A stretch of 62,940 nucleotides of DNA from Armatimonadota bacterium (GTDB lineage: Bacteria; Armatimonadota; SYMT01). Positions 13,661 to 40,015 of this stretch are shown piece by piece. The first letter of the stretch is position 1. Each line of letters starts with the position of its first letter. The notes beneath the pieces were generated by a model that did no database searches, had not been told where the DNA came from, and saw only the letters and a program-made list of their open reading frames with translations. The DNA lies in the NCBI GenBank assembly GCA_046292385.1, contig JBKBRF010000040.1, positions 1 through 62,940 on the forward strand, read 5' to 3'. The position numbers and the translations under genes are program-made.

Positions 13661-13930
13661 GATCTCAACGGGGGTCCACCCGCGCCCTCACCGACCGGAG
13701 CGGCCCTCCCGCGTGAGTGGCCCTCCCGCAGTCCTTTCATGCCCTTCGGGCTAGCGGACTGCTCCGGGTGTGCTCTCCGCAGTGCTGAGCTCCGCGTTCG
13801 TGGATTGCGGCTTCTTCGTTGCGGCGATGCACGGGCCGCTCCGGTCGGCTCAAGCGAGCCCCCTCGCCAGGGGGCTCACAAATGGAGCCCTCTGCCGCTG
13901 CCGGCGGCAGCGCCTCCGGGCTCCCGTGGG
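13661..13930. repeat. Structured dispersed repeat, copy 1 (subtype A)
   Basis: Helix CCGACCGGAGCGGCCC (13691-13706) / GGGCCGCTCCGGTCGG (13833-13848); shared core motifs; closely resembles the copy at 29141. Confidence 0.85.
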
Positions 13931-13975
13931 ATTATTTCTGACGGAAGCCGGTGCTGCCGCGGAGGCGGTGTGGCT

Positions 13976-15991
13976 CTAGGTGGAGGCGGCTAGCTCTTCT
14001 TCGGAGCCTTCGCTCATGAGGTAGATGCGGGGGCGGACGTCGTCCTCGGGGGTCCGCTCCCAGTGGCGGAGGAGGACTTCATAGACGCGGATGCCGGTTT
14101 CGCCTTCGCCCCAGAGGAGGTAACGGATCGCCTGGGCCACGGTGTTGCGCCGGGTGAGGCCGAGGAAGATGCTGATCGGGTCGAGGAGCTCGCTGAGGTA
14201 GGCGATGGCATTGGCGATCGCGACGGCACCGTCGACCTCGATGCAGTAGTCCTCACCGTTGCGCGAGACGCGCACGCGCAGGGCGGGGGAGAAGTCGCTG
14301 CGGTCATCGGCGAGGTTGACGTGGAGGAAGGCGAGCGGGCCGGCGATCCGGTAGTGCTCGCGAATCTCTTCTGCCTTGCGGGCGGTCGCTTCCGGGTCGA
14401 ACCGCTTGAGCGGGACCAGATTGATCTTCTTGTTCTGGATGGCGGCCCAGAGCTGTGCCGACTCCGGGCCCTCCAGCACCACCCGCTCCACGCGAAGCTC
14501 CGTGGCGCGGTGGTAGCGAGAGGCAGCGCTGAGCACGATGATCGCGGCGATAAAGAGCCCGGCGATGATGACGCCGTCCGGCCGGTGCCAGACGTTGTCT
14601 GCAATGGCGTAGATGAAGCCGGCTGTCACGAGCCAGAAGTAGAAGCTCAGGCGCCGGAGCGACGGGTTCTGCCCGCTTTCGTGCCGGAGGGCGAGGCTAA
14701 CCGCTACGGAGGCGGAGAGCATCAGCGCGAGCACGCCGGTGGCGTAGGCTCCCGCTTGCGCCTCCACTTCCGCGCGGAACGCGAGCGTAACCAGCACTTC
14801 CGCCGCGAAGAGCACCAGCACGAGCGGCCGGGCATAGGCGACCCACCGCGGCGCCATGCCGAGTCGCGGCAGGTAGCGCGGGATCAGGTTGAGCATGCCG
14901 GTGATGGCGGAGGCGCCGGCGAACCAGAGGATGAGGATCGTCGAGATGTCGTATGCGGTCCCGACTACCGGCCCCATCAGCCGGTGCGTCAGGTAGGCGA
15001 GCACGCGTCCGGACGCCTCTCCGCTGCGGTAGGCAGACTCCGGCACCAGCATGGCGGTCACCACGCTGGTGCCGATCAGCAGCACGCTCATCACGATCGC
15101 GGCCGCGGCGAGCAGCTTGCGACTGTTCCGGATCACGCCCTCCGGCTTGGGCCGGCGGCCGTCCTTGTCGTCCCCTCTCACCAGCGGCATGACGGCTACG
15201 CCGGTCTCGAAGCCGCTCAGACCGAGGGCCAGCTTGGGGAAGGCGGTGGCGGAGAGCAGCAGCAGAGCGACCGGATCGCCGGCCCGGGTGACGGCGCCGG
15301 CCCAGTGGGGGAGTGCTTCCGGGTGGGTAGCGATCTCATAAAGGCCGCGGCCGACCACCAGGAAGTTCAGCAGGATGTACGGGAGCCCCACCGCGATCGC
15401 GAGCCCGATCGCCTCGCTGAAGCCCTTGAGAAAGACGGCGGTGAGCAGAGAGATCAGGAGCAGCGTCACCCAGAGCTGCCCGCCGCCGTGGAAGTAAGGC
15501 TCCACGAGCGGGTTCTCCACGATGTGCAGCGCCGCGTCCGCCGACGAGAGGGTGACCGTGAAGATGAAGGCGGTGCTGGCGAAGCCGAGCATCACCAGGA
15601 TCACCAGCTTGCTCCGCCAGCCCCGGAGGACGCGCTCCAGCATCGCGATCGAGCCCTGCCCTACGTACGAGCGGCCGGCCACCTGGTAGTAGACCGGCAG
15701 CGCGCCGAAAAGGGTGAAGAGCACCAGTAGCGCGGTCGCGAACGGCGACAGGGCACCCGCCGCCAGGAGCGCGATGCCGGGCTGGTAGCCGAGGGTGGAG
15801 AAGTAGTCGACCCCGGTGAGCCAGAGCACCAGGTACCACGGCTTTGCGGCGTCGTGAACGTGACTGGCCTCCTCCGGCGTGCCGCCATGCCGCAGCCACG
15901 CGGTGAGGCCTCGCTCGGGCACGGGAACCTCCGGGACGCGCAGCGTAGGATCCGGGCTGGCGGAAGACGGCGCGGAGTGCGTGGAAGACAT
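13976..15991 (-). CDS. APC-superfamily amino acid transporter-like membrane protein
   Basis: LTGVDYFSTLGYQP, FPKLALGLSGFETGV; about 12 hydrophobic segments; start uncertain. Confidence 0.85.
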   Translation of the reverse strand: MSSTHSAPSSASPDPTLRVPEVPVPERGLTAWLRHGGTPEEASHVHDAAKPWYLVLWLTGVDYFSTLGYQPGIALLAAGALSPFATALLVLFTLFGALPVYYQVAGRSYVGQGSIAMLERVLRGWRSKLVILVMLGFASTAFIFTVTLSSADAALHIVENPLVEPYFHGGGQLWVTLLLISLLTAVFLKGFSEAIGLAIAVGLPYILLNFLVVGRGLYEIATHPEALPHWAGAVTRAGDPVALLLLSATAFPKLALGLSGFETGVAVMPLVRGDDKDGRRPKPEGVIRNSRKLLAAAAIVMSVLLIGTSVVTAMLVPESAYRSGEASGRVLAYLTHRLMGPVVGTAYDISTILILWFAGASAITGMLNLIPRYLPRLGMAPRWVAYARPLVLVLFAAEVLVTLAFRAEVEAQAGAYATGVLALMLSASVAVSLALRHESGQNPSLRRLSFYFWLVTAGFIYAIADNVWHRPDGVIIAGLFIAAIIVLSAASRYHRATELRVERVVLEGPESAQLWAAIQNKKINLVPLKRFDPEATARKAEEIREHYRIAGPLAFLHVNLADDRSDFSPALRVRVSRNGEDYCIEVDGAVAIANAIAYLSELLDPISIFLGLTRRNTVAQAIRYLLWGEGETGIRVYEVLLRHWERTPEDDVRPRIYLMSEGSEEELAAST

Positions 15992-16132
15992 GGCGGTGCG
16001 GGTGGTAGGCGCGCGCGGCAGGATCGCTGAGTTAAACGCTGACAACGCATCGTGGTGACGCCGAGACCGGCTTCCGGCTCTCGGGAGCCATCACCGGTCA
16101 ATACTTCTCTCTTCCTGCCGCTCCTAAAACCG

Positions 16133-16167
16133 ACGGCCGCCCCGAGGAAGCTCCTCGAGGCGGCCGT
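16133..16167 (-). terminator. Probable intrinsic terminator after the dioxygenase
   Basis: ACGGCCGCCCCGAGG..CCTCGAGGCGGCCGT hairpin followed by CGGTTTT on the minus strand. Confidence 0.55.
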
Positions 16168-16198
16168 GAGGCTCGAAACCGTGGTAATGCCGCGCGGA

Positions 16199-16855
16199 TC
16201 AGGCCTCGGGGGTGTGGCCGAGGACGACGTCGAAGCGGGCGGCGAGCTCGCCGGTACGGGAGCCCTGGATCGGGTTGAAGGCGACCGTCAGGGCTTCGCG
16301 CGCCTTCGGATCGCGCAGCGAGCGGTAGATGCCGTCGCGCTCGTTGAGCGGCTCGCCCCGGACGTAGCACTGGGTGGTGAGCAGCTCTTTGCCGCGCGAG
16401 CCGACCTTGACGTGGATGTGCGGGGTGCGGCCGGGATACGGGACCGGCTTGATGGTGCGGAAGTAGTACTCGCCGGTGGAGCCGGTGAGGAACCGTCCGT
16501 AGCCCTGGAAGTGGCGGTCCGCCTTCTCCCGCCCCGGGCTCTCCGTGTGGAGGTAGCAGGCGTTGTTGTCGACCTGCCAGATCTCGACGAGGGCATTGCG
16601 GACCGGCTCGCCGCGGGAGTCGAGGATGCGGCCGGTGAGGTGGGTGATCTGTCCCACGGCCGGGGTGATCCCGTTGTTGATGATGATGAGGTCGTTGTCG
16701 GTATCGAGGGGGAGCTTGTTCGGGTAGAAGGGGCCTTCGGTTTGCGCGGGGGTGCGGGTGAGCTCTTCGGCGAAGAGACCGCGGGTGGTGAAGGCGGCGG
16801 CGCCTACGGTCAGGGCCTGGAGGAGGTGGCGGCGGGTTTTATTGGGAGTGGACAT
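16199..16855 (-). CDS. Intradiol ring-cleavage dioxygenase family (protocatechuate 3,4-dioxygenase-like)
   Basis: TEGPFYP, VEIWQ, FRTIKPVPYPGRTPHIH; twin-Arg N-terminus. Confidence 0.9.
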   Translation of the reverse strand: MSTPNKTRRHLLQALTVGAAAFTTRGLFAEELTRTPAQTEGPFYPNKLPLDTDNDLIIINNGITPAVGQITHLTGRILDSRGEPVRNALVEIWQVDNNACYLHTESPGREKADRHFQGYGRFLTGSTGEYYFRTIKPVPYPGRTPHIHVKVGSRGKELLTTQCYVRGEPLNERDGIYRSLRDPKAREALTVAFNPIQGSRTGELAARFDVVLGHTPEA

Positions 16856-16981
16856 GGGTTTGTTCTCCGGTAGCTTCTTATCGGTTGAATGGGTTTTAGC
16901 CGCGAGTTCTCCTTCGGTACGGCTTCGGGTAGGATGGCTCCTCGCGCTCTTTCCGTTTTTCGGAGGCGTACTCTAGCTCGA

Positions 16982-17235
16982 GGGTTTCCCCCGAGCCCTT
17001 GTCTCTCGGTCCAGCCCTCCCGCGAGCAGGGCCTTCCGCTGCCCTTTCACGCTCCGCCTTCGGCTCCGCTAGCGGGCCGCTCCAGGCGTGCGCTGCGACA
17101 TGCTCTGCCCGCGTTCTGGAGCTCGATCTCACCAGCGGCCTGGTTCACGGGCTGGACCGAGAGCCTTCGAGCTGCCACCCCCCCACCGGGGGTGACCACA
17201 GGTGGCCCCCTTCGCTCCGCTGCGGTGGCCTCAGG
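16982..17235. repeat. Structured dispersed repeat, copy 2
   Basis: Helix CTCTCGGTCCAGCCC (17003-17017) / GGGCTGGACCGAGAG (17149-17163). Confidence 0.85.
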
Positions 17236-17446
17236 TTCTCTTTCACGCGAGGCGACCTGCTTTAGGTGAGCCGCTATCTCGATGATGAGTGTTTTGACGT
17301 TGGGGGCAGGAGCCTCGTTCGGATGGTTTGCCGGCCGAGTGCCCGGAGTATGCGTTCGGTGTTTGAGGACTGTTAACCTGTGGGCGTGATAACGACCCGC
17401 CCGCCGGTGCACTGCCGGGGGCGGTTCTGGCTTTCTGGGGTGGCGG

Positions 17447-17737
17447 ATGGCGGAGGGGATGGGGGTGGCGGCGCCGGCGGGAGCTGGTGAGGGGAGAGCG
17501 GGGGCGGTGGGGCGGGCGGGGGGCGAGCGGAACGGGTGGTGCCGGGTCTGCGTGAGCGTCTCGCTGGTGCCGCCGAAGCCGGGGCAGTTGATCTCCGTCT
17601 CCCGGGGGCCGCTTTCGGTGCGGGTGACGGTCTGCCTGCCCCGGCTGGTGATGGCCGGGCTGTTGGTGCTGACGCTGGGGCCGCACCCCTGGTTCGGACA
17701 GGTGGTGCGCTGGGCGCGGGCGATCGGAGGGTGGTGA
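17447..17737 (+). CDS. Hypothetical small protein with C-terminal hydrophobic segment
   Basis: First ORF of the cluster; TGATG coupling to the next ORF. Confidence 0.45.
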   Translation: MAEGMGVAAPAGAGEGRAGAVGRAGGERNGWCRVCVSVSLVPPKPGQLISVSRGPLSVRVTVCLPRLVMAGLLVLTLGPHPWFGQVVRWARAIGGW

Positions 17738-18003
17738 TGGGGATCTGGCGGATCTTTGGCGGACGGATGGTCGAGCTGCTGCGGGGGAACGTGTGGGAGA
17801 TCCTGCGGACGGTGGTGACGCGCGCGGCGGCGGACGAGGTGGAAGAGGGGCTGCGGGACCAGTTCCGGGCGCTGGGACCGGAAGGCCGCGAGGAGCTGGC
17901 GGGGACGCTGGAGCGGATCGCCGCGCTGCTGCGGGCCGACCGGAGCGGGCGCGCGGCCGGCCGCGTGGCGGCGGAGCTGGTGGGGCGGCTGACGCTTCGC
18001 TGA
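17737..18003 (+). CDS. Hypothetical helical protein
   Basis: MGIWRIFGGRMVELL...; GGAGG RBS; coupled start. Confidence 0.6.
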   Translation: MGIWRIFGGRMVELLRGNVWEILRTVVTRAAADEVEEGLRDQFRALGPEGREELAGTLERIAALLRADRSGRAAGRVAAELVGRLTLR

Positions 18004-18065
18004 AAGAGGGACGGAGAGACAGCGGGACGGGGAGAGGCTGGGCTTGAGAGGCCGGCTCCTGGTCC

Positions 18066-18116
18066 CGGGCGGTTGAAACCGCGGCAAAAGCGGCACGAAG
18101 TCCTCCTTCGGGGACT
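18066..18116. repeat. REP-like element, GGGCGGTTGAAACCGCGGC family, copy 1
   Basis: Two short hairpins; same element at 22183 and 41076. Confidence 0.8.
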
Positions 18117-18137
18117 CAGGATGGTGTGGAGGGGTAG

Positions 18138-19028: not shown

Positions 19029-19034
19029 GGTGGA

Positions 19035-20540
19035 ATGGCTGAAGCGAAGGGGACCGGGCGCCGGCGCCGGAAGGCGGCCGGTCCGCCCACCTTTCGGGAG
19101 TTCGTACAGGCGGTGTGGCCGCGGTACCGGTGGTACCGCCACTGCGACGCGTTGGCGGCGGTGCTGCAGCGCCTCGCGGACGGCGAGGTCAAGCGGCTGA
19201 TGGTCTTTATGCCGCCGCGCCATGGGAAGAGCGAGACGGTCTCCCGCCTCTTTCCCGCCTACTACCTGCTCCGGTTCCCGGAGCGCTGGGTGGGGCTCTG
19301 CAGCTATGGCGCGGAGCTGGCGCACACGCTTTCCCGGTCCGCGAAGGACTACTACCTCCGGGGCGGCGGCCGGCTGGATCCGGGCGCGGCCGCGGCGCGG
19401 CACTGGGAGACCGGCGCGGGCGGCGGGATGTGGGCCGCCGGCGTAGGCGGACCGATCACCGGCAAGGGCTGGCACCTCGGCGTGATCGACGATCCGGTAA
19501 AGAACGCGGCCGAGGTGGGCTCGCCCCACTTCCGGGAGAAGCAGTGGGAGTGGTACGGCTCCGTCTTCTATACCCGCGAGGAGCCGGTCGGCGAGAGCGG
19601 CGATCCGGACGGAGCGCTGGTGGTGGTGCAGACGCGCTGGCATCCGGACGATCTTTCGGGGCGTCTGCTGGCGCGGGACCGGGACGAGGAGGAGCCGGAG
19701 CGCTGGCACGTGGTCTCGCTGGAAGCGCTGAAGGAAGAGACGCCGCCGGAGGTGCCGCCGCACTGCACGCTGGAGCCGGACTGGCGAGCTCCGGGAGAGG
19801 CACTCTGCCCGGAGCGCCGCCCGCGGGAGAAGCTGGAGCGGGTGCGGCGGGCGCTGGGAAGCTACGCGTGGAACGCGCTCTACCAGCAGCGTCCGCGGCC
19901 GCGCTCCGGCGGCTTCTTCAAGGTCGACCGGCTCCAGGTGGTCGCCGCGGCCCCCGCCGAGGCGGAGCGGGTGCGCTACTGGGACAAGGCCTCGACCGAG
20001 GGCGACGGCGACTACACGGCCGGAGTGCTGCTGGCGAAGGACGGGGACGGGCTCTACTACGTGGAGGACGTGGTCCGCGGCCGGTGGGGTCCGGCCGAGC
20101 GGGACCGGCGGATGCGCCAGGCGGCCGAGCGGGACGCGGCGCGGGCCGGCAGCCGGGTGCGGATCTGGGTGGAGCAGGAGCCGGGTAGCGGCGGCAAGGA
20201 GAGCGCACAGGCGAGCGTGCGGCTACTGGAGGGCTTTCCGTGCCGGACCGAGCGGGCGACCGGCGACAAGCAGAGCCGCGCGGATCCGTTCGCGGCGCAG
20301 GTGGAGGCGGGCCGGGTGCGGCTGGTGGAGGGGGCGTGGAATTCGCCCTACCGGGAGGAGCTGGCGGCGTTTCCGCTGGGGGAGCATGACGACCAGGTGG
20401 ACGCGAGCAGCGGGGCGTTCAACCGGCTGGCTGGGAGGGGGAGGCGCAGAGGGCTTGTGGGATCTGGTAGGGGTTTGGTTTGGGTAGGGGTGCCTTTCGG
20501 TCCCGGGACTCTGCCTTCCGGTGGCTTGCTGTGCTTGTAG
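19035..20540 (+). CDS. Terminase large subunit
   Basis: Walker A MPPRHGKS, GVGGPITGKG, VIDDPVKN, QTRWHPDDL, nuclease WDKAS...DYTAG and HDDQVDA. Confidence 0.95.
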   Translation: MAEAKGTGRRRRKAAGPPTFREFVQAVWPRYRWYRHCDALAAVLQRLADGEVKRLMVFMPPRHGKSETVSRLFPAYYLLRFPERWVGLCSYGAELAHTLSRSAKDYYLRGGGRLDPGAAAARHWETGAGGGMWAAGVGGPITGKGWHLGVIDDPVKNAAEVGSPHFREKQWEWYGSVFYTREEPVGESGDPDGALVVVQTRWHPDDLSGRLLARDRDEEEPERWHVVSLEALKEETPPEVPPHCTLEPDWRAPGEALCPERRPREKLERVRRALGSYAWNALYQQRPRPRSGGFFKVDRLQVVAAAPAEAERVRYWDKASTEGDGDYTAGVLLAKDGDGLYYVEDVVRGRWGPAERDRRMRQAAERDAARAGSRVRIWVEQEPGSGGKESAQASVRLLEGFPCRTERATGDKQSRADPFAAQVEAGRVRLVEGAWNSPYREELAAFPLGEHDDQVDASSGAFNRLAGRGRRRGLVGSGRGLVWVGVPFGPGTLPSGGLLCL

Positions 20541-20612
20541 GTAGAGGTCACCGTTTCGGAGATTCTCCGTGCCGTTGGCTTTCGCTTGCTTGGCGATGAA
20601 GGCTACCAGTTC

Positions 20613-20866
20613 GGGGGTTCCCCCTGCGCCCTTGTCCCTCGGACCAGCCCTCCCGCGACTTGGCCCTCCGCGGCCTTTTCACCCTCCGCTTCGCTCCGTT
20701 AGCAGGCCGCTCCGGGAGCTCACTTCGTCAGGCTCTGCCCGCGCCATTTGCGGGCGTTTGTTTCGGAGTTGGCGTTCACGGGCTGGTCCGAGGGCCTTCG
20801 AGCGACCCTCCCCCTCCGGGGAGGGTCACAGGTGAGCACCGTCGCTCCCGCTCCGGTGCTCTTGGG
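20613..20866. repeat. Structured dispersed repeat, copy 3
   Basis: Helix CCCTCGGACCAGCCC (20636-20650) / GGGCTGGTCCGAGGG (20780-20794). Confidence 0.85.
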
Positions 20867-20895: not shown

Positions 20896-22164
20896 ATGGC
20901 TTTGATGAGTGCGGTGATGCTGGATCAGTTTGCGGCGGCGGAGCGGGAGCGGCAGGCTCGGATCGAGCGGGGGTGGCGGCGGTATCACGGGGAGTGGCCG
21001 GATCCGCTGCGGCCGACGCGGTCCGATCCGCGGGGTGAGGACAACATCCGGCTCAACTTTGCGCGGCTCATCGTGGACAAGGGGGCGGGGTTCCTCTTTC
21101 GCGGGGAGCCGCGGCTGGAAGTCGACGGCGACGGGGATGGGGAGGCGGACCGGTGGCTGGCGCGCTGCTGGGAGGCGAACCGGAAGATGACGACGCTGCA
21201 CCGCCTGGCGGTGAACGGCGGCGTTTGCGGTCACGCCTTCCTCCGGGTGCGGCGGCAGCCGGGCGCGGAGTTTCCGCGGGTGGTGGTGCCGGACCCGGCG
21301 CACGTCTCAGTGCGGTGGGAAGCGGACGACTTCGAGGAGGTGACGGCGTATCACCTCCACTGGCACGGGGTCGATCCGAAGACGGCGCGGCCGGTGGCGT
21401 TCCGGCAGGTGCTGGAGCGGGACGGCGACCGCTGGCTGATTACGGACCAGGAGAGCCGCGGGGACGACGCGGCATGGGTGGACCGGGGGCCGCCGGAGGT
21501 GTGGCCCTTTGCGTGGCCGCCGCTCTTCGGCTGCCAGAACCTCCCGTGCCCAAACGAGTGGTGGGGGCTCTCCGACCTGGAAGAGGACCTGCTGCGGATC
21601 AACCAGGCGATCAACTTCGTGGCGAGCAACGTCGCCCGCATCCTGCGGCTCCACGCGCATCCGAAGACGTGGGGAAAGGGCTTCCAGGCGAGCGAGCTGT
21701 CGATCGGGGTGGACGAGACGATCGTGCTGCCCGACCCCTCGAGCGAGCTGCAGAACCTGGAGATGAAGAGCGACCTGGCGAGCAGCCTGGAGCTGTTCCG
21801 GGAACTGCGGGGAACCCTGCACGAGTTGGCGCGCGTGCCGGAAGTGGCGACCGGCAAGGTGGAGGACCTGGGCCAGCTTTCCGGCCTGGCGCTGCAAATC
21901 CTGTACGGTCCGCTGGTGGAGCTGACGGAGACGAAGCGGCTCCTCTACGGCGAGTTGCTGCAGGAGGTGAGCCGGCGGCTGCTGGAGCTGGGCGGCTTCG
22001 GCACGAACCACCGCGTGCGGGTCTACTGGCCGGAGGTGCTCCCGCGGGACCCCCGCGGCGAGGCGGAGACGGCCCGGCTCTATGCGGAGCTGGGGGTGAG
22101 CCGGGAGACGCTGCTGGCGCGGCTCGGCTTCGATCCGGAGGCGGAGGCGCGGAGGTCGGGCTGA
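20896..22164 (+). CDS. Portal protein (SPP1 gp6-like)
   Basis: YHG, NFARLIVD...FLF, WGLSDL, SGLAL, WPEVLPRD motifs; follows TerL. Confidence 0.88.
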   Translation: MALMSAVMLDQFAAAERERQARIERGWRRYHGEWPDPLRPTRSDPRGEDNIRLNFARLIVDKGAGFLFRGEPRLEVDGDGDGEADRWLARCWEANRKMTTLHRLAVNGGVCGHAFLRVRRQPGAEFPRVVVPDPAHVSVRWEADDFEEVTAYHLHWHGVDPKTARPVAFRQVLERDGDRWLITDQESRGDDAAWVDRGPPEVWPFAWPPLFGCQNLPCPNEWWGLSDLEEDLLRINQAINFVASNVARILRLHAHPKTWGKGFQASELSIGVDETIVLPDPSSELQNLEMKSDLASSLELFRELRGTLHELARVPEVATGKVEDLGQLSGLALQILYGPLVELTETKRLLYGELLQEVSRRLLELGGFGTNHRVRVYWPEVLPRDPRGEAETARLYAELGVSRETLLARLGFDPEAEARRSG

Positions 22165-22182: not shown

Positions 22183-22234
22183 CCGGGCGGTTGAAACCGC
22201 GGCAACAACGGCACGAAGTCTCCCTGCGGAGACT
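22183..22234. repeat. REP-like element, GGGCGGTTGAAACCGCGGC family, copy 2
   Basis: CCGGGCGGTTGAAACCGCGGCAACAACGGCACGAAGTCTCCCTGCGGAGACT. Confidence 0.8.
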
Positions 22235-22252
22235 TCCGGACGAGGAGGCGGG

Positions 22253-22660
22253 ATGGACGAGGAGCAGGGGCAGGCGCAGGAGGGTCACGGCGCTCCCGAG
22301 GGTGAGCGGCGGTTCAGCCAGGCGGAGGTCGATGCGCTGCTGCGGGAGCGGGACCAGGAGCTGGAGGCGGCGCGCTCCGAGCTGGCGGCGCGGGAGCAGG
22401 AGGCGCTGCGGAGCGCGGCAGCGGCACGGCACCGGCTGCCGGCGGAGCTGGCCGGCCGGCTAGTGGGGGCGAGCGAGGCGGAGCTGGAGGCGGACGCGCA
22501 GTCGCTGGCGCGGCTGGTGAGCGCGGGCGGGCAGTCGTCGGCGGCGAACCCGCCGGGCGGACGCAGCAGCGCGCTCTCGCTGGAGGCGGTGCGGAAGATG
22601 AGCCCGGCGGAGATCAACGCGCGCTGGGAGGACGTGCGGGGGGTGCTGGCGGGGCGGTAG
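22253..22660 (+). CDS. Capsid scaffolding protein
   Basis: FSQAEVD motif, coiled coil, LP..LA.RL.G..E.EL.ADA; lies between portal and capsid. Confidence 0.8.
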   Translation: MDEEQGQAQEGHGAPEGERRFSQAEVDALLRERDQELEAARSELAAREQEALRSAAAARHRLPAELAGRLVGASEAELEADAQSLARLVSAGGQSSAANPPGGRSSALSLEAVRKMSPAEINARWEDVRGVLAGR

Positions 22661-23153: not shown

Positions 23154-24014
23154 ATGGCGCTTACGAATTTCATTCCGGAGGTCTGGTCGGCGCGGCTGCT
23201 GGCCAACCTGCACAAGAACCTGGTGTACGGCCAGGAAGGGGTGATCAACCGCGACTACGAGGGCGAGATCGTGGAAGCGGGCGACACGGTGCGGATCAAC
23301 GCGGTGGGTCCGGTGACGGTCTCCGACTACACGCGCAACAGCGACCATGACACGCCGGAGACGCTGAGCGACGCGGAGACGATCCTGCAGATCACGCAGG
23401 CGAAGATGTTCAACTTCCAGATCGACGACGTGGACCGGGCGCAGCAGAAGCCTTCCGTGATGGACGGGGCGATGCGGGAGGCGGGCTACGCGCTGGCGGA
23501 TACGGCCGACCAGTTCATCGCCGGCAAGTACCTGGAGGCGGCCGCCGCCAACCTGATCGGCAGCACGGCGGCGCCGAAGACCGACCTGGGCACCGGCGGC
23601 CGGGCCTACGAGTACCTCGTCGACCTGAAGGTGAAGCTGGACGAGGCGAACGTGCCGCGGTGGGGCCGCTGGTGCGTGGTGCCGCCGTGGTACGAAGGGC
23701 TGCTGCTGAAGGACGACCGCTTCGTCTCCTACGGCACCGCCGAGAACCGGGAGAACCTGGCCAACGGCGAGGTGGGCCGCGCGGCGGGGTTCCGGCTCCT
23801 GGTCTCCAACAACGTGCCGAACACCACGGGAGCGAAGTTCCGGATCGTGGCGGGGCACCCGCTCGCCTGGAGCTTCGCGGAGCAGATCCGCAAGGTGGAG
23901 GCGTTCCGGCCGGAGCGGCGGTTCGCGGACGCGGTGAAGGGGCTGCACCTGTACGGCGTGAAGGTGGTGCGGCCGGTGGGGCTGGCGGTGTTGACGGCGG
24001 ATCAGCCGGCCTAA
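23154..24014 (+). CDS. Major capsid protein
   Basis: FIPEVWS, NRDYEGEI...GDTVRI, FQIDDVD, FADAVKGLHLYGVKVVRP. Confidence 0.92.
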   Translation: MALTNFIPEVWSARLLANLHKNLVYGQEGVINRDYEGEIVEAGDTVRINAVGPVTVSDYTRNSDHDTPETLSDAETILQITQAKMFNFQIDDVDRAQQKPSVMDGAMREAGYALADTADQFIAGKYLEAAAANLIGSTAAPKTDLGTGGRAYEYLVDLKVKLDEANVPRWGRWCVVPPWYEGLLLKDDRFVSYGTAENRENLANGEVGRAAGFRLLVSNNVPNTTGAKFRIVAGHPLAWSFAEQIRKVEAFRPERRFADAVKGLHLYGVKVVRPVGLAVLTADQPA

Positions 24015-24096
24015 GTCTTCGGTCTGCGAGGGGTTGAGCCGGGTGGATTCGCACCCGCCCGGCCCAACCCCATCTGTCCGGAGCAGACTTCATCCC

Positions 24097-24370
24097 GAGG
24101 GACCGCCCCGAGCCCTAGTCTCTCGTCGCAGCCCTCCCGCGTCAGAGGCCCTCCGCGGCCCTTTCACGCTCCGGCTCCGCCTCCGCTAGCGGGCTGCTCC
24201 GGGTGTTCACCCCGGCATGCTCTTCCCGCGCCAGGAGGCTCTTACCGATTTCGATGACGTTGTTCACGGGCTGCGGCGAGAGCCGTCGAGCTGCCACCCC
24301 GCGACCCGCAAGCGGGTACCCCGGGTGGCCACAGGGTGTCCGCCTACGCTTCGCTCCGGCGGACCTGGGT
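24097..24370. repeat. Structured dispersed repeat, copy 4
   Basis: Helix CTCTCGTCGCAGCCC (24120-24134) / GGGCTGCGGCGAGAG (24268-24282). Confidence 0.85.
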
Positions 24371-24823: not shown

Positions 24824-24825
24824 CG

Positions 24826-27235: not shown

Positions 27236-27673
27236 ATGGCGAGTGAGCTTCAGGCGGTGGACCGGGCGGTGACGTCAGTGCTGACGGCGGACGCAGACGT
27301 GAGCGAGGCCGTTGGGAACCGGATCTACGCGGGCGCGGCTCCCCAGGGGGCGGTGCAGCCGTACGTGGTTTTCCAGCGTGTGGGCGGGGCCGACCGGCCC
27401 GCGGTCGGCGGCGGCGAGACCGTCTGCTCCCGGACGGTGTACGCGGTGGAGGTGGTCGGCGCCGCGGGTGGCTTCGCGGAGCTGGACCCGGCAGCGGGGG
27501 CGGTGGACGCCTGCCTCTCGACCCTCGAGGAGAGCGTGTCGCTGGGGAGCGAGACCTACCGGGTGCGGGGAGCGGGGCGGGTGGATCCGGTGCGGCGGGT
27601 GGAGACGGTAGAGGGGAGGCGGTACTTCCACGTGGGAGGCCGGTACCGGATCTTTGCGCAGCGAGTCGGGTGA
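27236..27673 (+). CDS. Tail terminator (DUF3168-like)
   Basis: VGNRIY...APQGA..PYVVF motif. Confidence 0.8.
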   Translation: MASELQAVDRAVTSVLTADADVSEAVGNRIYAGAAPQGAVQPYVVFQRVGGADRPAVGGGETVCSRTVYAVEVVGAAGGFAELDPAAGAVDACLSTLEESVSLGSETYRVRGAGRVDPVRRVETVEGRRYFHVGGRYRIFAQRVG

Positions 27674-27747
27674 GGGGGTGTGCTTGACGTTTCGAGCAGT
27701 TGTCGAAGGCCTGCACTACCTTCCTGTCGAGGCGCAGCGTTGGCTCC

Positions 27748-28010
27748 GCGGGTCCGACCCCGCGCCCTTGTCGCCCGCTTCAGCCCTCCCGCGACTCTGG
27801 CCCTTCCACAGCCCTTTCACGCTGCGCCTGCGGCTCCGCTAGCGGGCTGGTCCGGGCGTGCTCACCGGCGCGCTCTTGCCGCGCCACTGCGCTGCATCAC
27901 GGCAGAGGTTGGGTTCACGGGCTGAAGCGGGCGCCTTCGAGCGACCACCCCTGAAGCTCCAGGGGTGGTCACAGGGGGCACCCTCCGGCTTCGCCTTCGG
28001 GCGCCATGGG
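27748..28010. repeat. Structured dispersed repeat, copy 5
   Basis: Helix CGCCCGCTTCAGCCC (27772-27786) / GGGCTGAAGCGGGCG (27919-27933). Confidence 0.85.
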
Positions 28011-28076: not shown

Positions 28077-29048
28077 ATGGCGGAGCGGGCTTCGGTTCTG
28101 GAGCGGAGTCAGATCGGGGTGGAGGCGGTGCCGGGCACGGCGGTGGCGTGCGGGCACCGGTTGATGCTGACGCGGATCGAGCCGCGGCCGGTGGTGGCGG
28201 TGCGGCACCGGCGGGGGATCGGGAGCAAGTACGGGGTGGCGGCGGAGGCGGGGCGGGAGCACACGGAGGCGCGGCTGGAGGGGGAGGCGGGCTACAACGA
28301 GCTGGTCTACCTGCTGGCGGCGCATCTCTGCACGCCGGTCTTCGGCGGGTCGACGGCGACCTTCGTGCCGGATCCGTTCGGGCCGGACACGGTCCGGACG
28401 CTGACGGTGCAGGCGGGCACCTCCGCCCGGGCCGAGCAGTTCGACTACGGGATCGTGCGGACGCTGCAGCTTCGCTTCACCGGCACCGAAGTGGCGGTGA
28501 CCGGGGAGATGTTCGGCCGGGAGCTGGCGGAGGGGGCCGCGCTGACGCCCAACGCGGCGCCGGTCGGCACGGTGCTGATCGGGCCCGGCGACTGGAAGGT
28601 GCGGGTGGGCACGGCGATGAATGGCGGCGACCTGGCCGACCTGACGCGCGTGCTGGAGTGCGAGCTGCTCTCCCGGAACAAGTGGAAGCCCGGCTTCTTC
28701 GCCGGCGGCTCCGGCGAGGAGAGCTTCACCCGCGAGGTGGAGCTGGCGCCGGAGACGCGGGTGCGCCTGGCGCTGGAGCACGACGCGGTCTCCGCGGGCT
28801 TTATGGCGACGCTGCGCTCGGCGGAGAGCCGGCTGCTTCGGATCGAGGCGAACGGGCCGGAGGTGTCGCCCGGGACCGCCTACCAGCTCCGCATCGAGAT
28901 GCCGTTCCGCTTCGTGGAGTGTGACCGCGGGGACCGGGACGAGTTGTTCGGGAGCGTCTATACGCTGGAGCCGACTTACGACGCGGCGTTCAACGGGACG
29001 GGTGGGGTGATGAAGGTTTCGGTGACTTCGGGAGTGACCGGGTTTTAG
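28077..29048 (+). CDS. Major tail (tube) protein
   Basis: QIGVE..PGT N-terminus, TLTVQ.G; lies between terminator and chaperone. Confidence 0.75.
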   Translation: MAERASVLERSQIGVEAVPGTAVACGHRLMLTRIEPRPVVAVRHRRGIGSKYGVAAEAGREHTEARLEGEAGYNELVYLLAAHLCTPVFGGSTATFVPDPFGPDTVRTLTVQAGTSARAEQFDYGIVRTLQLRFTGTEVAVTGEMFGRELAEGAALTPNAAPVGTVLIGPGDWKVRVGTAMNGGDLADLTRVLECELLSRNKWKPGFFAGGSGEESFTREVELAPETRVRLALEHDAVSAGFMATLRSAESRLLRIEANGPEVSPGTAYQLRIEMPFRFVECDRGDRDELFGSVYTLEPTYDAAFNGTGGVMKVSVTSGVTGF

Positions 29049-29140: not shown

Positions 29141-29415
29141 GGGATCTCACCGGGGTTCCACCCCGCGCCCTCACCGCCGGGAGCGGCCCTCCCGCGTGTT
29201 TGGCCCTCCCGCAGTCCTTTCACGCCCTGCGGGCTAGCGGACTGCTCCGGGCGTGCTCTCCGCTTTGCTGCGCTCCGCGTCCGCGGGCTGCGGCTGCTTC
29301 GGGGCTGCGATTCACGGGCCGCTCCCGGCGGCTCAAGCGACGGCCCCTCGCCAGGGACCGTCACAAAGGGAACCCTCCGGCGCTGCTTGCGCAGCGCCTC
29401 CGGGCTCCGTGGGGG
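29141..29415. repeat. Structured dispersed repeat, copy 6 (subtype A)
   Basis: Helix CCGCCGGGAGCGGCCC (29174-29189) / GGGCCGCTCCCGGCGG (29316-29331), compensatory relative to copy 1. Confidence 0.85.
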
Positions 29416-35057: not shown

Positions 35058-35316
35058 CATCTCACCGGAGGTCCACCTCGTGCCCTCCCCGAACGGAGTG
35101 GCCCTCCCGCGGGGGTGGCCCTCCGCTGCTCCCCCGTTCGGGGGACAAGCCTTTCACGCTCCGCCTTCGCCCCCCGTTCGGGGGGTGAACCTCCGCTAGC
35201 GGGCTGCTACGGGCGTGCTCCCCGGTAGCCTGCGCTCCGCGTTCGTGGGCTGCGGCTTCTTCGCTGCGGCGACTCACGGGCCGGTCCGTTCGACTCAAGC
35301 GAAGACGCCTCGCCAG
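35058..35316. repeat. Structured dispersed repeat, copy 7 (subtype A, 3'-truncated, two inserted hairpins)
   Basis: Helix CGAACGGAGTGGCCC (35090-35104) / GGGCCGGTCCGTTCG (35278-35292); CCCCCGTTCGGGGG inserted twice. Confidence 0.8.
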
Positions 35317-35370
35317 ATACTGTTGGCGAAATCGGGAAGCTGCTCCGGTGCCCCGCTGGCGCGGGGCGCG

Positions 35371-35476
35371 AAAGCAAGCATTCGCACTCCACAGGCTAGC
35401 CCGGAAGAGATTCCCTCTCGCCGAGAGGGAGACTGCCTCGGTGCAGTCTGTGGAGTGCGGTGGCTTGCCACCGTTT
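35371..35476. repeat. Pair of GGAGTGCG-type REP elements
   Basis: GCAAGCATTCGCACTCCA and TGGAGTGCGGTGGCTTGCCACCG; same family as the REPs next to the transposase at 62053-62191. Confidence 0.7.
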
Positions 35477-35696
35477 CCCCGCCAGGGAATCTCGCCGGAG
35501 TGCTTGGCCGCCGGTGATCCTCCTGCCCCGCTGGTTTCGCCAATCCAATCTCGCCAGGGGGGGCACAGAGGGAACTCTCCGTTGCTGCCTGCGGCAATAC
35601 CTCCGCGCTCGTTGAGTTTGGCTGCCGCACCTCGAGTGGAGGCGGCCTTCGGCCAAGAGCCAAACTCCTACCCCCCATTCCCCCACTCAGTCCGTT

Positions 35697-36623
35697 TTAC
35701 CCGCCGTGCTGGTAGCAGAGCCCGATGGGGCTGGTGGTGGTGCGGCGACAGCGGCGGCCTTCTCTGGTGACGCCCTGGCACTGCACGGCGGCGACTCCGG
35801 GGGGAGCCTGATTACCGGTAGGGCCGGACGGCGGCCGGGCGGGGGGCTGCGATGGGCTGACGGGCGCGGCGCCGGGGAGCTCGAGGGAGGCCTGGGCGAG
35901 GGAGTAGCGGTCGCCTTGCTTCACGGCACGGGCGGAGCGGAGCGTGAGTCGATCCAGCACTCCAGTCCAGGCCTGGCGGTCGGGGGCGCTCTCGGTGCGC
36001 GTGAGGGCGGCCGCGCGGATGCCGAGTCCGGCGTAGAGACAGCTTTCGGGGTCGAGCGTGCCACTCTGCGGGGGAAGCTGCACGCTGAAGGCGAGGGCGC
36101 GTCCGCCGAAGTAGCCGACGCTGACGCGCACGCCGTCCGGGAGGCCGTAATCCCGCCAGTCACCGTCGCCGCCGGGCAGCGGTCTTCCGATCGCCGAGAG
36201 GACTCTCTCCACCATCTCTGGAGGCGCATAGGCGACCTGCGCGAGCGGGCACGCCGGACCGGGCGCCGAAGCCGGGATCGGAGCTCCGCCGGAGAGCGGC
36301 GCGGGGCCGGAGGGCGCCAGGGTCATCCGCGGCGGCGGCGCGAGCGGCTCGGCGGCGGGCGCGCTCGCAGCTCCCTGTGCCGCACTCTCCCGCTGCCGCG
36401 CCTGCCACTCGCGGTCGAGCGCCTGCCACTTCGACATCTCCTGACGAAGGGTCTCCTCCGGGGGCGGGCGAAGGCTCGCGGAGAGCTCCGGCGGCGTCTC
36501 GGCAGGCGGCGGGGAGACCGCGCCGCGCTCGATGACGGTGGGCGGCGCCGGCGCGCAGCCGGAGGCCGCGAGCGTCAGCGCGAGGAGCGACACCGGGAGC
36601 ATGAGGCGGGAAGTGAGGAGCAC
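35697..36623 (-). CDS. Putative lipoprotein with C-terminal CCCH-type zinc finger (DUF5763-like)
   Basis: Lipobox-like ASGC after a hydrophobic signal; QCQGVTREGRRCRRTT....LCYQH. Confidence 0.7.
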   Translation of the reverse strand: MLLTSRLMLPVSLLALTLAASGCAPAPPTVIERGAVSPPPAETPPELSASLRPPPEETLRQEMSKWQALDREWQARQRESAAQGAASAPAAEPLAPPPRMTLAPSGPAPLSGGAPIPASAPGPACPLAQVAYAPPEMVERVLSAIGRPLPGGDGDWRDYGLPDGVRVSVGYFGGRALAFSVQLPPQSGTLDPESCLYAGLGIRAAALTRTESAPDRQAWTGVLDRLTLRSARAVKQGDRYSLAQASLELPGAAPVSPSQPPARPPSGPTGNQAPPGVAAVQCQGVTREGRRCRRTTTSPIGLCYQHGG

Positions 36624-36687
36624 GCGGTCCCCCTGACAGAGTCAGGGGACACTTGGGTGAGCGAGTGCGCGTTTCCCTCCTTTCCGG

Positions 36688-37743
36688 TTATCCGCCGCGC
36701 TCCTTGCCGCCCTTTCCGGCCGCCGTAGCCGCCAGTGGTGCCCGCGCCGCACGCGGGCGCGCGGCGGAGGGCACCGCCAGCGCGCGGGCGGGAGCCGCTT
36801 TCACTGCCGGCGCCGCCTTCACCGTGGGTGGGTCGGCACTCCGCGTTGCGGCCGCGCGCCGGATGGACGGAGTCGGCCCCGCGGGCGTTGCTGCCGCCGC
36901 CTTGACCGGCGCCTCCGGAGCAGGCTCCGGCTTCTTCCGTGACCGGGGTGGGGGGCTGGCCGGCGGAGCAGCCTTCTCCCGGCCGGACGCGACCGGCGGC
37001 TCCATTGCGTTCCGGGGCGGCTTCTGCGGCGGGGGAGGCGAGACGTTCTGCAGCGCGGCGCGCCGGCTCCGCTTCTCGGCCGGCGCCTCTCGCTCCAACG
37101 TCAGCGCGAGCTGTGGGGCCGCTTTGGCCGGCTGCTTCTTCGCTCGGGCGGCCCGCTCCGCGGCGGTGGGCTGCGTTGTCTCGCGTGGAGCCGTCGTCTT
37201 CACCGGGGCTGCGGCCTGCCGTCGCGCGGCCGGCTTCTTCGTCGTCTCCGCGGCGGGTGCCGTCGCTTTCGGCGTAGAGGCAGGGGCCGCGGTCTTGCGG
37301 CCGGCCCTGGCACGGGTGGACTTTGCCTGATCCGCTGCAGCCGGGGCCGGGGCGGGCTTCGCGGCCGGCTTCGACTTCGCGGCCGGCGTTCGGGCGGGCG
37401 CGGCGGCGGCGCGGGCAGGGCGGGGGCGCGCCGCCGGGGGAGCTTTCGGCGCGGGCGTCTCCACCACCGGGTCCGGGGTCAGGTCGGCCGCCTCGAGGGG
37501 ACCGTCATTGGGCAGCACCTCGATGTTGGCGCGGCCCAGCAGGCGCACTACGCCGTTCCAGAGCGACATCGGGATGATGAACTGCCAGGCGTAAATCTTC
37601 CCGCCGTCTCGCTCGTAGGTGATCGCGTCCGAGGCCTTCTGATGAGGAAAGCGCGCGTAGCCGAGGAGCGACTTCAACGTCGCCCGGTCGCACGTATAGA
37701 CGGCGGCATGGCCTTCGGTGATCCGCCACATGGTAGCCTGCAC
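36688..37743 (-). CDS. Hypothetical protein with small N-terminal domain and long Ala/Pro/Lys/Arg-rich tail
   Basis: GGAGG RBS before GTG 37743; globular first ~85 aa, then a basic low-complexity region. Confidence 0.7.
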   Translation of the reverse strand: MQATMWRITEGHAAVYTCDRATLKSLLGYARFPHQKASDAITYERDGGKIYAWQFIIPMSLWNGVVRLLGRANIEVLPNDGPLEAADLTPDPVVETPAPKAPPAARPRPARAAAAPARTPAAKSKPAAKPAPAPAAADQAKSTRARAGRKTAAPASTPKATAPAAETTKKPAARRQAAAPVKTTAPRETTQPTAAERAARAKKQPAKAAPQLALTLEREAPAEKRSRRAALQNVSPPPPQKPPRNAMEPPVASGREKAAPPASPPPRSRKKPEPAPEAPVKAAAATPAGPTPSIRRAAATRSADPPTVKAAPAVKAAPARALAVPSAARPRAARAPLAATAAGKGGKERGG

Positions 37744-37927
37744 GGCTGGAACCTCCACGAACGAGGGGACAGGCCGGTGCCGGCGGCAGGGGCCGTCACA
37801 CCGGGATACAGGGGAAAGCAAGCCTTCCTTCCAGGCGAGGAAGGAGGGAAAAGGCGCCTCCACGGCGGGAGGCGCCTCGGTTAAGGTCGGCCGGAGTGGC
37901 GGCGCCGGCCACTCCGGCAGGTGAGGC

Positions 37928-38842
37928 TCAGGCGCCGGCGCGGGCTGCCTCTTTCTGGCAGGCCGGGCAGAGCGGCCGTCCGAAGGCGCGCACGCTCATG
38001 TTGTGCTGGCCTTTGGTCAGCGCTTTGCCGCAGCCCGCCGCGCTGCAGTTCATCGCCTCCGGAGTGTCCGCGGAAGCGTCTCCGCGCGCGGCGGCGCGAT
38101 CCCCGCTCGACTCGGGAGCGGGACGCTCCGCGCGCGCCGCGCCCGCGGCGCCGGCGGTCCAGATAGAGCGCTTCTCGCCCTCCGCGTCCGGTGCCGGAGC
38201 CGCGGGCGCGGTGGGTGCAGCGGCGGCCGGAGCCGGCGCGGGACGGCTCGCCTTCCGCTCCTCGGCGGCCTCGTCCGTCACGGGCGGAGCGGGCGGGCGG
38301 GGAGCCGGCGGACGGGACGCGACGCTGGTCGGTCGCTCGCCAGAGCGCTCCGCGGGGCGGGCGTCCAGGGCCTGGGGCCGGCTCGCCACGCCGCAGATCG
38401 CCAGGGCGCGCTCGATGGCGGCCGGCGAGATGCGCGGCCGCTCCGTAAATTGCCGCCGCTGGGAATCGAACGGCGCCCAGACCTTCGGCAGGTAGTAGAG
38501 ATACCGCCCGATGCCGAAGTGGACCGCGCACCGCTTCAGCGCGTCCGACACCGCCGACTTGAGCACCTCATCTTCCGTCGAGGCCTCGCCGGCATCGCAC
38601 TTGGTCACCCCGCAGACCGTGAGCTTCCCCTTTACGAACTTGCCGTCCGGCGCCACCAGCTCGAAGTCGTAGCTCCAGTTTCCGGGCCCCACCACGGCAT
38701 CGAGCCGCCGCATCACGTCTCGCGCGTCGATGTACGGCAGGCCGAGCGCCTTTCCGCCCGAGGTGGCGCGGGGGAGAAAGTCGATCTCGTCTTCCGGGAA
38801 CGGCGCGCCGAGCGCCTCCATCACTTCTCTCGTGAGCTCCAT
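37928..38842 (-). CDS. Rad52/Rad22 family single-strand annealing protein with C-terminal zinc ribbon
   Basis: PYIDARDVMRRLD.VVG..NW, KSAVSDALKRCAV.FGIGRYLY; C-terminal C...C...RPLCPACQ. Confidence 0.9.
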   Translation of the reverse strand: MELTREVMEALGAPFPEDEIDFLPRATSGGKALGLPYIDARDVMRRLDAVVGPGNWSYDFELVAPDGKFVKGKLTVCGVTKCDAGEASTEDEVLKSAVSDALKRCAVHFGIGRYLYYLPKVWAPFDSQRRQFTERPRISPAAIERALAICGVASRPQALDARPAERSGERPTSVASRPPAPRPPAPPVTDEAAEERKASRPAPAPAAAAPTAPAAPAPDAEGEKRSIWTAGAAGAARAERPAPESSGDRAAARGDASADTPEAMNCSAAGCGKALTKGQHNMSVRAFGRPLCPACQKEAARAGA

Positions 38843-38900
38843 GTCATCTCTCCTCAATCCAAGTCCCGTGTTCGCACGAGAAGCTCCGGTTTACGCGAAC

Positions 38901-38929
38901 AGTATACCAAACAGATGTTCCCCTATCAA
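38901..38929 (-). promoter_or_regulatory. Sigma70 promoter with a LexA (SOS) box between -35 and -10
   Basis: Minus strand reads TTGATA-17 nt-TATACT; the spacer contains GAACATCTGTTT (GAAC-N4-GTTY, 38909-38920). Confidence 0.8.
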
Positions 38930-39112
38930 CGCCGGCTCACCTGCGCCGGGGGAGAATCTCTTTCGCTCCCACCGCCGGCGAGCCGGCGCCGGGGTTACCC
39001 GGAGCGCGTGGGGCGGAGTCGGTGGTCGTCCCGGCTGATCAGAAATGAAGATAGAATCTCTCCGAGCCGAGCAGAGCCAGGAATCTCGCCTGGACGCCGG
39101 GAAGTTAACACT

Positions 39113-39637
39113 ATGAAACCGAGACTCCTCGTCCCCATGGCTGCCGCCCTGCTGTCTCTGGCCGCAGCCTCCACTGTCGTCGGCGCCGCCGCGGAAAAGG
39201 GCAAGTGCGCCGTCTCCGGTAAGGAGATCGAGATCACCGAGAAGACCCCGCGGAGCAGTATCCAGGGGAAGGCGGTCTACTTCTGCTGTGAGAACTGCCC
39301 CAAGGCGTTCGCCAAGACCCCGGAGAAGTTCGTCAAAGGTGATCTCGGCAAGTGCCCGGTGCAGAACAGCGACATCGAGGCGGCCGACGCCGGTCTGCGC
39401 CGCGTGATCAACAACGGCGTCTGGTATGTCTGCTGCCCCGGCTGCGCGGACGGCCTCGCCAACTCCCCGGCGGTGTTGAAGTCGCTGAACGACGTCGTCT
39501 CCAACAAGACGTTCACGGCGACCGCCAGCAGCCCGAAGATGGAGTACAAGGGCCAGCTCTACCTGTTCCAGAACGCCGAGACGAAGTCCCAGTTCGAGAA
39601 GGATCCGGCGAAGTACGCCCTGGTCTTCACGAAGTAA
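39113..39637 (+). CDS. Secreted YHS-domain protein
   Basis: Signal peptide; GKAVYFCCENC..F...PEKF; EYKGQLYLF.....K.QF..DPAKY. Confidence 0.8.
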   Translation: MKPRLLVPMAAALLSLAAASTVVGAAAEKGKCAVSGKEIEITEKTPRSSIQGKAVYFCCENCPKAFAKTPEKFVKGDLGKCPVQNSDIEAADAGLRRVINNGVWYVCCPGCADGLANSPAVLKSLNDVVSNKTFTATASSPKMEYKGQLYLFQNAETKSQFEKDPAKYALVFTK

Positions 39638-39655
39638 GTCTCTCCTGACGTGCCG

Positions 39656-39685
39656 GAGGGGGAGCAGCTTCGGCTGCTCCCCCTC
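39656..39685. terminator. Strong hairpin after the YHS gene
   Basis: GAGGGGGAGCAGC-TTCG-GCTGCTCCCCCTC; no clear U tract. Confidence 0.55.
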
Positions 39686-39769
39686 TGCGCGTTCAACGGG
39701 GCGCGCAGCGCTAGCCGCTCCTCACGCGCGCCTCGGTGTTCCTCCCGAAGAGCCGCGTCGAGAACGTCC

Positions 39770-40015
39770 TCCCGACCCCGCGCCCTAGTCGGCCGCTCCA
39801 GCCCTCCCGCGATGAAGTGCCCTCCGCGGCCTTTTCACGCTCCGGCTTCGCCTCCGCTAGCAGGCCGCTCCGGGAGTGCGCTCCGTTTAGCTCTTCCCGC
39901 GCCGCAAACGGGATCTCACCATTCGCTCGGTTCACGGGCTGAATCGCCCGCCGTCGAGCGACGACCCCTGCGCCCAGGGGTCGTCACAAGGGGCGTCCAT
40001 GGGACGCCGCAGGTT
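39770..40015. repeat. Structured dispersed repeat, copy 8
   Basis: Core motifs GCCCTCCCGCG, TTTCACGC, GCTAGC, TTCACGGGC, TCGAGCG, CACAAGG; long helix partly degenerate (39790-39804 / 39936-39950). Confidence 0.8.

Follow-up and report, generated by a model that had tools for sequence, protein, structure and literature searches.

The 62,940-nt window analysed here (contig C40 of a 7.04-Mb, 91-contig assembly of an Armatimonadota bacterium; GCA_046292385.1, JBKBRF010000040.1) carries eight copies of a structured non-coding repeat. We found that these copies belong to a genome-wide family of intergenic units with a covarying single-strand fold. The units fall into two subtypes that form obligatorily heterotypic pairs, they are gained or lost as a block, and they have no linked gene. 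We tentatively regard them as an undescribed family of non-coding, non-autonomous interspersed elements moved in trans, similar to oversized REP/BIME/REPIN-like repeats (probability about 0.45). In a literature search at the level of abstracts, no paper on such an element in Armatimonadota was met.

A covariance model of the repeat family (CM R1; 261 positions, 44 pairs in 8-9 helices) matched the window exactly eight times, always on the plus strand and at 132-201 bits, and no ninth match appeared at E ≤ 1e-10 (Table 1). A repeat search of the window also tied all eight sites together, and an ordered motif scaffold was visible in the eight-way alignment. A sequence-only reading of the window had placed eight copies here; each of its starts lies within 8 nt of a model match, and the four pairs of complementary arms that it quoted are present exactly as written. 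The copies are spaced 1.4-5.9 kb apart, at a density of 8 units in 27 kb. In copy 2, the arms of the long-range helix (17003-17017 and 17149-17163) are 131 nt apart. The T-rich leader of copy 3 seems, by eye, to begin near 20575, and alignments of copy 7 revealed two additional hairpin insertions and an altered 3' hairpin.

The core of the element is about 260 nt long; a T-rich leader on its 5' side and a trailer with a hairpin on its 3' side bring the moved block to about 300-420 nt. Read 5' to 3', the folded single strand begins with a hairpin. Next comes the 15-bp long-range helix, which encloses a junction with two or three hairpins, and two more hairpins stand at the 3' end; the 5' hairpin, one or two of the 3' hairpins and the variable hairpin were described by eye only. 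Near-invariant C-rich unpaired motifs lie between the helices (GCCCT, CCCTCCCGCG, GGCCCTCC, TTTCAC, TAGC, CCGCG, TCACGGGC, TCGAGC and CACA), and each unit contains five direct GCCCT motifs.

The fold was supported by compensatory changes. For the eight window copies, RNAalifold predicted 47 pairs, 19 of them compensatory, including the 15-bp long-range helix with its arms that vary in sequence from copy to copy. Among 48 copies aligned with MAFFT, 25 of 44 predicted pairs showed compensatory changes. Two further comparisons used alignments fitted to CM R1. For two other genera (18 copies), the share of paired cells was 93.4%, compared with 81.1% after shuffling and 33-48% with slid partners, and 10 of the 12 pairs of the long helix changed on both sides. 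In 76 copies from four sources, 95.4% of cells paired, compared with 77.8% after shuffling (0 of 500 shuffles reached the observed value) and 39-49% with slid partners, and 31 of 44 pairs changed on both sides. Covariation was strong in the long-range helix and in three further helices, so the covarying long-range helix proposed earlier was borne out, with the shuffled and slid controls lower. Within the own genome, 106 nearest-neighbour pairs of copies, which are not mutually independent, differed at 20.1% of unpaired but 8.5% of paired columns; double changes numbered 246 against 33.5 expected, and pairing was kept in 218.

To the scale of the genome, a profile built from the eight window copies gave 145 nhmmer hits, 129 of them strong (>100 bits; 60 on the plus and 69 on the minus strand), and CM R1 likewise gave 145 matches. 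Of the strong copies, 59 belong to subtype A and 70 to subtype B; the base of the long helix and the TCAAGC/TCGAGC motif carry the linked differences that separate them, and both subtypes occur in the window (Table 1). Units occur singly, in tandem and as convergent A/B pairs. All 26 close pairs (two copies at most 1 kb apart) were convergent and joined A with B, 17 as +B/-A and nine as +A/-B; their gaps range from -34 to 207 nt, and 52 of the 129 copies are paired. Conserved sequence in paired copies reaches about 70 nt past A and about 140 nt past B. In a self-megablast of the assembly, no other sequence of 500 bp or longer recurred as often as the resulting A/B composite of about 800 bp; the others had at most three copies each, in a 91-contig assembly that could have lost collapsed insertion sequence (IS) copies. 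Inside pairs, each unit has its own complementary arms and therefore folds on itself, not on its partner.

Two observations concern the surroundings of full copies. In three genomes, full copies are preceded at 50-100 nt by short, co-oriented 5' fragments of a unit, comprising the 5' hairpin, GCCCT and some of arm 1, which hints at nested insertion or recombination between copies. Runs of short ACACAG/ACAGAGG-like motifs stand in direct orientation on both sides of several young composites, the right end of the composite reading ...GTAGTACAG; these runs may mark a preferred target or serve as sub-terminal binding sites.

The element has a narrow distribution. In the order, represented by eight genomes (G000-G007, with G000, 98% complete, being the own genome), CM R1 matched three: G000 with 145 matches, G005 with 13 and G006 with eight; G001-G004 and G007, which are 69-95% complete, gave none. 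Across a phylum sample of 151 genomes, matches were confined to the same three. A pattern scan of species-representative genomes returned one record labelled Armatimonadota, and two further pattern matches, labelled Syntrophobacteraceae and Acidobacteriota, failed the covariance model and were dismissed as chance. A pattern scan of metagenomes yielded nine contigs with 10 model matches at 29-149 bits. Convergent pairs were also seen in G005, and tandem same-strand units in G005 and G006. As the sequence-only reading had supposed, the repeat is not a known Rfam family: Rfam 15 gave only the tRNA of the window at gathering thresholds, and one copy searched at E ≤ 10 gave chance-level hits. With composites and the G005, G006 and metagenome relatives (E ≤ 1), it gave only tRNA and a sub-threshold whalefall-1 match (22.4 bits against a cut-off of 37).

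In G005, two type I-E CRISPR arrays have copies at their trailer ends, four in all. CRISPR-repeat-like sequence stands on both sides of each copy, and the 3' GGTT(T) of the element runs directly into the repeat. The array ends look like duplicates, so the four copies probably represent two events, which could reflect targeting of palindromic repeats or insertions tolerated there. A general CRISPR link was rejected, as both arrays of G000 are more than 11 kb from any copy.

On the modelled strand, two pairs are kept as G-U, which indicates that the fold is strand-specific and that the modelled strand is the one that folds. This would suit independently transcribed structured small RNA (sRNA) genes, with a start in the T-rich leader, a stop at the 3' hairpin and a product acting in trans. 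Three unpaired CCCUCC-type motifs resemble an anti-Shine-Dalgarno sequence, and their partners could be ribosome-binding sites or a protein; the copy number would have grown by duplication or during an old mobile phase. The near-invariance of the unpaired motifs over three genera and the metagenomes speaks for this explanation. So do the 96% of pairs intact per copy despite 20% divergence at unpaired columns, the 3' hairpin followed by GGTT(T) that is kept in G000 subtype B, G005 and G006, and the scarcity of private variants in the cores of composites compared with their arms. However, no sigma-70-like promoter was found upstream of any scanned copy, and a simple terminator scan recovered the 3' hairpin in one of six G006 copies and about one of eight window copies; both consensus scans may not fit this phylum. 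A family of 129 copies is also far above any known trans-acting sRNA family. Deviating cells were G-U no more often than A-C (25 vs 24; 15 vs 17), so RNA is not distinguishable from single-stranded DNA (ssDNA) on this measure. We consider sRNA genes a rather unlikely explanation, albeit one with several points in its favour.

Single copies are intergenic and, as claimed before, their direction is unrelated to that of the flanking genes, with 21, 16, 17 and 17 copies in the four orientation classes, which rest on a crude GC3-based gene finder whose predicted open reading frames (ORFs) overlap 14 of the 129 copies. Several spurious ORFs run across element copies. The statement that all copies point the same way is true of the window (8 of 8) but not of the genome, where both strands are used, and the uniformity of the window is local; outside it, neighbouring single copies at most 20 kb apart were co-oriented in eight cases and opposed in eight. 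The suggested comparison with replichores gave a mild bias in oriented GC skew (49 single copies positive, 28 negative), which was judged unconvincing at 41/28 without the eight window copies; the majority gene strand was unbiased, and a replication-strand bias was not accepted.

Copies are also clustered regionally. The genome averages one unit per 68 kb, and contig C8 (1-125000) holds 11 units (nine A/B pairs, two singles) in 125 kb, where about 1.8 are expected, which is about six times the genome density. The cluster sits among housekeeping genes (CTP synthase, EPSP synthase, SMC, aldolase). A link of this cluster to the origin or to partition was rejected, since dnaA is on C4 and the ParB genes are on contigs other than C8. 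Clustering of this kind would be in keeping with domesticated, BIME-like cis-acting chromosome elements that bind a host protein (nucleoid, gyrase-like or SMC loader) or stabilise or insulate neighbouring transcripts. The same may be said of the heterotypic inverted pairs, an arrangement also found in BIMEs, of the five direct GCCCT motifs per unit and of the constraint on the cores. Yet the lack of any relation to gene orientation means that a terminator or stabiliser role is not general, and absence from four of the six other genomes of the same family means that the element is not essential. In addition, the C8 cluster is not at dnaA, and no binding protein is known. Such a role is improbable in our estimate.

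The uniform orientation of the eight window copies and their spacing would be accounted for if they were recombination sites bounding gene cassettes, as attC sites do, or phage-specific processing sites. The window is prophage-like from about 17 to 37 kb, with terminase, portal, scaffold-like, capsid and tail-completion genes recognised by Pfam. This block holds five or six of the copies, five of them between co-oriented phage genes, and the spacer between terminase and the next gene is 356 nt here against 0-73 nt in two related phage loci. The co-oriented copies and the strand-specific fold agree with such sites. The genome-wide pattern contradicts them, as copies occur on both strands, in convergent pairs and beside housekeeping genes, and zero copies were found in 80 related viral loci (terminase up to 60% identical). 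Known attC sites measure about 57-141 nt and stand in uniform orientation in an array beside an integrase. The units here, at 261 nt, are about twice the length of the longest attC, have mixed orientation and commonly form convergent pairs; no search for an integron integrase was made. We give this explanation next to no credence.

Evidence that the element comes or goes as a block was obtained from a metagenome contig of a relative, in answer to the suggestion that empty sites be sought. There, a 149-bit antisense copy occupies a 433-nt spacer, while the same two genes are 14 nt apart in the own genome; the flanking genes are 75-84% identical, a divergence at which the exact junction is not placeable. 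The block gained or lost is about 420 nt, comprising the core, a leader of about 90 nt and a trailer of about 60-75 nt. The short terminase-portal spacer of the two related phage loci and the lack of copies in all 80 such loci likewise speak for mobility. With no Rfam family, covariation in other genera and gain or loss as a block, the earlier view of a new structured element with a selected fold, either mobile or functional, has held up.

A linked HUH, reverse transcriptase or nuclease gene, for which the sequence-only reading proposed a search, was not found beside the copies. Among ORFs up to 3 kb from the 129 copies, no linked protein recurred; the most frequent was present at seven of 129 sites, as paralogues only 30-45% identical. 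The reverse transcriptase domain PF00078 had no candidate in G000, though it is present in four of the eight genomes, and a retro-mobile RNA (SINE-like or derived from a group II intron) was rejected on this ground. The IS91-type Y2 domain PF04986 was found in none of five genomes, in a search that carries no weight, its control being positive in none.

Orphaned guide or scaffold RNAs, namely the omega RNA of TnpB/IscB or the bridge RNA of IS110, were considered as well. HEARO/omega RNAs and IS110 bridge RNAs are structured, non-coding and multicopy, measure about 200-300 nt and are associated with mobile DNA. The present units resemble them in size and complexity and in being multicopy with no terminal inverted repeats or target duplications seen by eye. 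Nevertheless, the partner proteins were absent or uncorrelated. The TnpB domain PF07282 was found in none of the eight genomes of the order but in eight of 14 control genomes (IscB was not searched separately). IS110 (PF01548) was absent from G005, which has 13 copies, and its two G000 genes are on C91 and C6, away from the copies. Neither HEARO nor any other Rfam family matched, and in 73 single copies the variable parts matched their own flanks no better than the flanks of other copies, so that no guide-like match was evident. Guide RNAs are thus largely refuted, and we rate them as very improbable.

HUH Y1 genes are present in genomes of the order. REP-associated tyrosine transposase (RAYT) genes, scored by NF047646 above its curated cut-off, number three in G000, seven in G005, two in G006, one in G001 and none in G002, G003, G004 and G007; this phyletic pattern is weak, coming from a small sample of related genomes. 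The own genome also encodes an IS200-type TnpA on contig C51, and each of the 39-nt repeats around it holds the hairpin GCGAGGGGTT-GAAA-ACCCCTCGC.

If the elements are mobile, as we favour, a family would have spread through the intergenic DNA of one Armatimonadota family, with the fold, rather than the arm sequence, being recognised and kept, and an enzyme encoded elsewhere in the genome would move the element in trans. By analogy, that enzyme might be one of the HUH Y1 enzymes of the genome (RAYT or IS200-type) acting on folded ssDNA. This identification is doubtful, because it draws on analogy and the weak phyletic pattern, no copy is present at 15 Y1/RAYT loci, and the known RAYTs have partners of their own.

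Several results weigh against trans-mobilised elements. The model gave zero matches (E ≤ 0.1) within about 1.5 kb at the 15 Y1/RAYT loci of G000, G001, G002, G005 and G006. The RAYT gene of the window has its own small REP pair upstream, a multicopy REP with 18-44 genome hits, and known RAYTs are therefore already supplied with partners. Identity between own copies reached at most 96.4%, with a median of 85.4% for nearest neighbours, and the family appears old, with no sign of current activity. No terminal inverted repeat, target duplication or conserved target motif was seen by eye at the ends of nine young composites or in the filled/empty pair, and the same observation made earlier agrees with this inspection by eye. 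In 12 composites sharing arms and spacer, private variants per column amounted to 0.20-0.29 in the two folded cores and were two to three times as frequent, at 0.58-0.69, in the arms and spacer of those copies. This depletion in the cores suits per-locus constraint, through a function for the host or as RNA, as well as or better than purely selfish mobility, although it could also be obtained by gene conversion among cores or by long-lived active master lineages. Finally, the strand-specific fold fits RNA as well as ssDNA.

A broader alternative is that the units, rather than being selfish DNA in decay, are large structured elements of a new class, acting as RNA or as strand-specific ssDNA, under purifying selection at more than 100 loci, with A and B cooperating as a convergent pair. 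They would then either form a structure-guided mobile system, served by an enzyme family with no known tie to transposition so far, or have a role as RNA or in the chromosome that extends over the genome and is peculiar to this Armatimonadota lineage. We regard this as unlikely, about on a level with a cis-acting role.

The closest likeness is to known extragenic repeats. With REP/REPIN-RAYT systems (PMC3337134; bioRxiv 10.1101/2022.05.22.493013), the element shares an extragenic location, high copy number, the lack of an own gene, a palindromic structure-forming unit, frequent inverted pairs with a spacer and long persistence in a lineage. RAYT genes are also present in every genome that carries the element. 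The element differs in its size of about 260 nt with five or more helices, where a REP is a hairpin of 20-40 nt, and in pairs whose halves are always of different subtypes and fold by themselves, where REPINs need not be heterotypic. In addition, no RAYT gene is flanked by the element, and that of the window has its own small REP. Membership among REPINs fails on unit size and RAYT adjacency. The window RAYT and its REPs form a conventional REP-RAYT system, separate from the structured family.

In BIMEs of enterobacteria, repeats of two subtypes alternate in inverted orientation and form a mosaic with conserved linkers. The 800-bp A/B composite is likewise made of two inverted subtypes, but its units are ten times larger, come from another phylum and lack evidence of IHF or gyrase binding. 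ERIC/IRU and the Bacillus cereus bcr repeats are intergenic, 100-200 nt long and found in both orientations; their single strands are predicted to fold, and some of the changes in them are compensatory. The element has no Rfam or sequence relation to them, and it differs in its long-range closing helix, multi-branch junction and two obligatorily paired subtypes. MITEs (reviewed in PMC3184786) are similarly small, non-coding, intergenic and numerous, and the element is present or absent as a block. In contrast to MITEs, no terminal inverted repeat or target duplication was seen at unit or composite ends, by inspection only, and neither a parent IS with matching ends nor a recurrent neighbouring ORF was found.

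Other features of the window were noted in passing. A Rad52-like gene overlaps an ORF on the opposite strand that bears YHS/TRASH-type metal-binding motifs, and at least part of one or the other is probably not a real gene. A repeat of about 60 nt (CCGGGCGGTTGAAACCGCGG... plus a hairpin) has three copies in the window and 41 matches on 34 contigs. A second repeat of 68 nt (82% identity, 12 genome matches) flanks the DUF1552 end and the DUF1592 end of a minus-strand gene pair and is possibly a shared regulatory or leader sequence.

Table 1. Location of the element copies and of other features. Positions are those of the window unless a genome, contig or locus is given.
Feature	Position	Strand	Evidence and context
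Copy 1, subtype A	13665..13916	+	CM R1 190.4 bits; subtype motifs; Pfam of neighbours; between two minus-strand genes, DUF885 (11792-13567) and an ORF (13976-16045)
Copy 2, subtype B	16975..17234	+	CM R1 201.5 bits; divergent genes either side
Copy 3, subtype B	20608..20865	+	CM R1 194.9 bits; occupies terminase-portal spacer
Copy 4, subtype B	24092..24368	+	CM R1 185.4 bits; directly 3' of capsid gene and that gene's own hairpin
Copy 5, subtype B	27744..28009	+	CM R1 199.4 bits; 3' of tail-completion gene
Copy 6, subtype A	29147..29400	+	CM R1 201.2 bits; 3' of ORF 28077-29045
Copy 7, subtype A	35062..35357	+	CM R1 132 bits; most divergent of the eight
Copy 8, subtype B	39762..40022	+	CM R1 193.9 bits; 3' of ORF 38003-39634 and a strong hairpin
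Terminase large subunit	19035-20537		Pfam
Portal	20896-22161		Pfam
Scaffold-like	22253-22657		Pfam
Capsid	23154-24011		Pfam
Tail completion	27236-27670		Pfam
Rad52-like gene	37928-38857	-	Overlaps next ORF
ORF with YHS/TRASH-type motifs	38003-39634	+	Overlaps Rad52-like gene
DUF1552/DUF1592 gene pair	41429-45408	-	Flanked by 68-nt repeat
Repeat of about 60 nt	18065-18124, 22183-22242, 41076-41135
Repeat of 68 nt	41237-41304, 45712-45779
tRNA	394-466		Rfam 15 at gathering thresholds
RAYT	62260-62790	+	NF047646 96 bits vs cut-off 80
Inverted pair of 27-nt REP-like hairpins	62053-62079 / 62165-62191		Just upstream of window RAYT
IS200-type TnpA, 141 aa	G000 contig C51, L060 1424-1995		39-nt inverted repeats either side
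5' unit fragments	L022 828-873; L054, L055, L056		Upstream of full copies
Composites with ACACAG/ACAGAGG-like flanks	e.g. G000 C8:55838, C10:72611, C16:36822, C30:16851
Type I-E CRISPR arrays with copies at trailer ends	G005 L051, contig C3, 6640-7690 and 12318-12919

Among bacterial interspersed repeats, those whose fold is proven are nearly always short hairpins, and the element described here is a 260-nt multi-helix unit with clear covariation. It stands out for its two obligatorily paired subtypes, for signs of constraint on individual copies, for its occurrence in a poorly studied phylum and for the lack of a linked enzyme. The covariance model would stop ORF miscalls in element regions and allow the family to enter RNA and repeat libraries. 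With this element it can be tested whether a complex fold is compatible with a REP-like lifestyle, and what recognises a fold of this kind.

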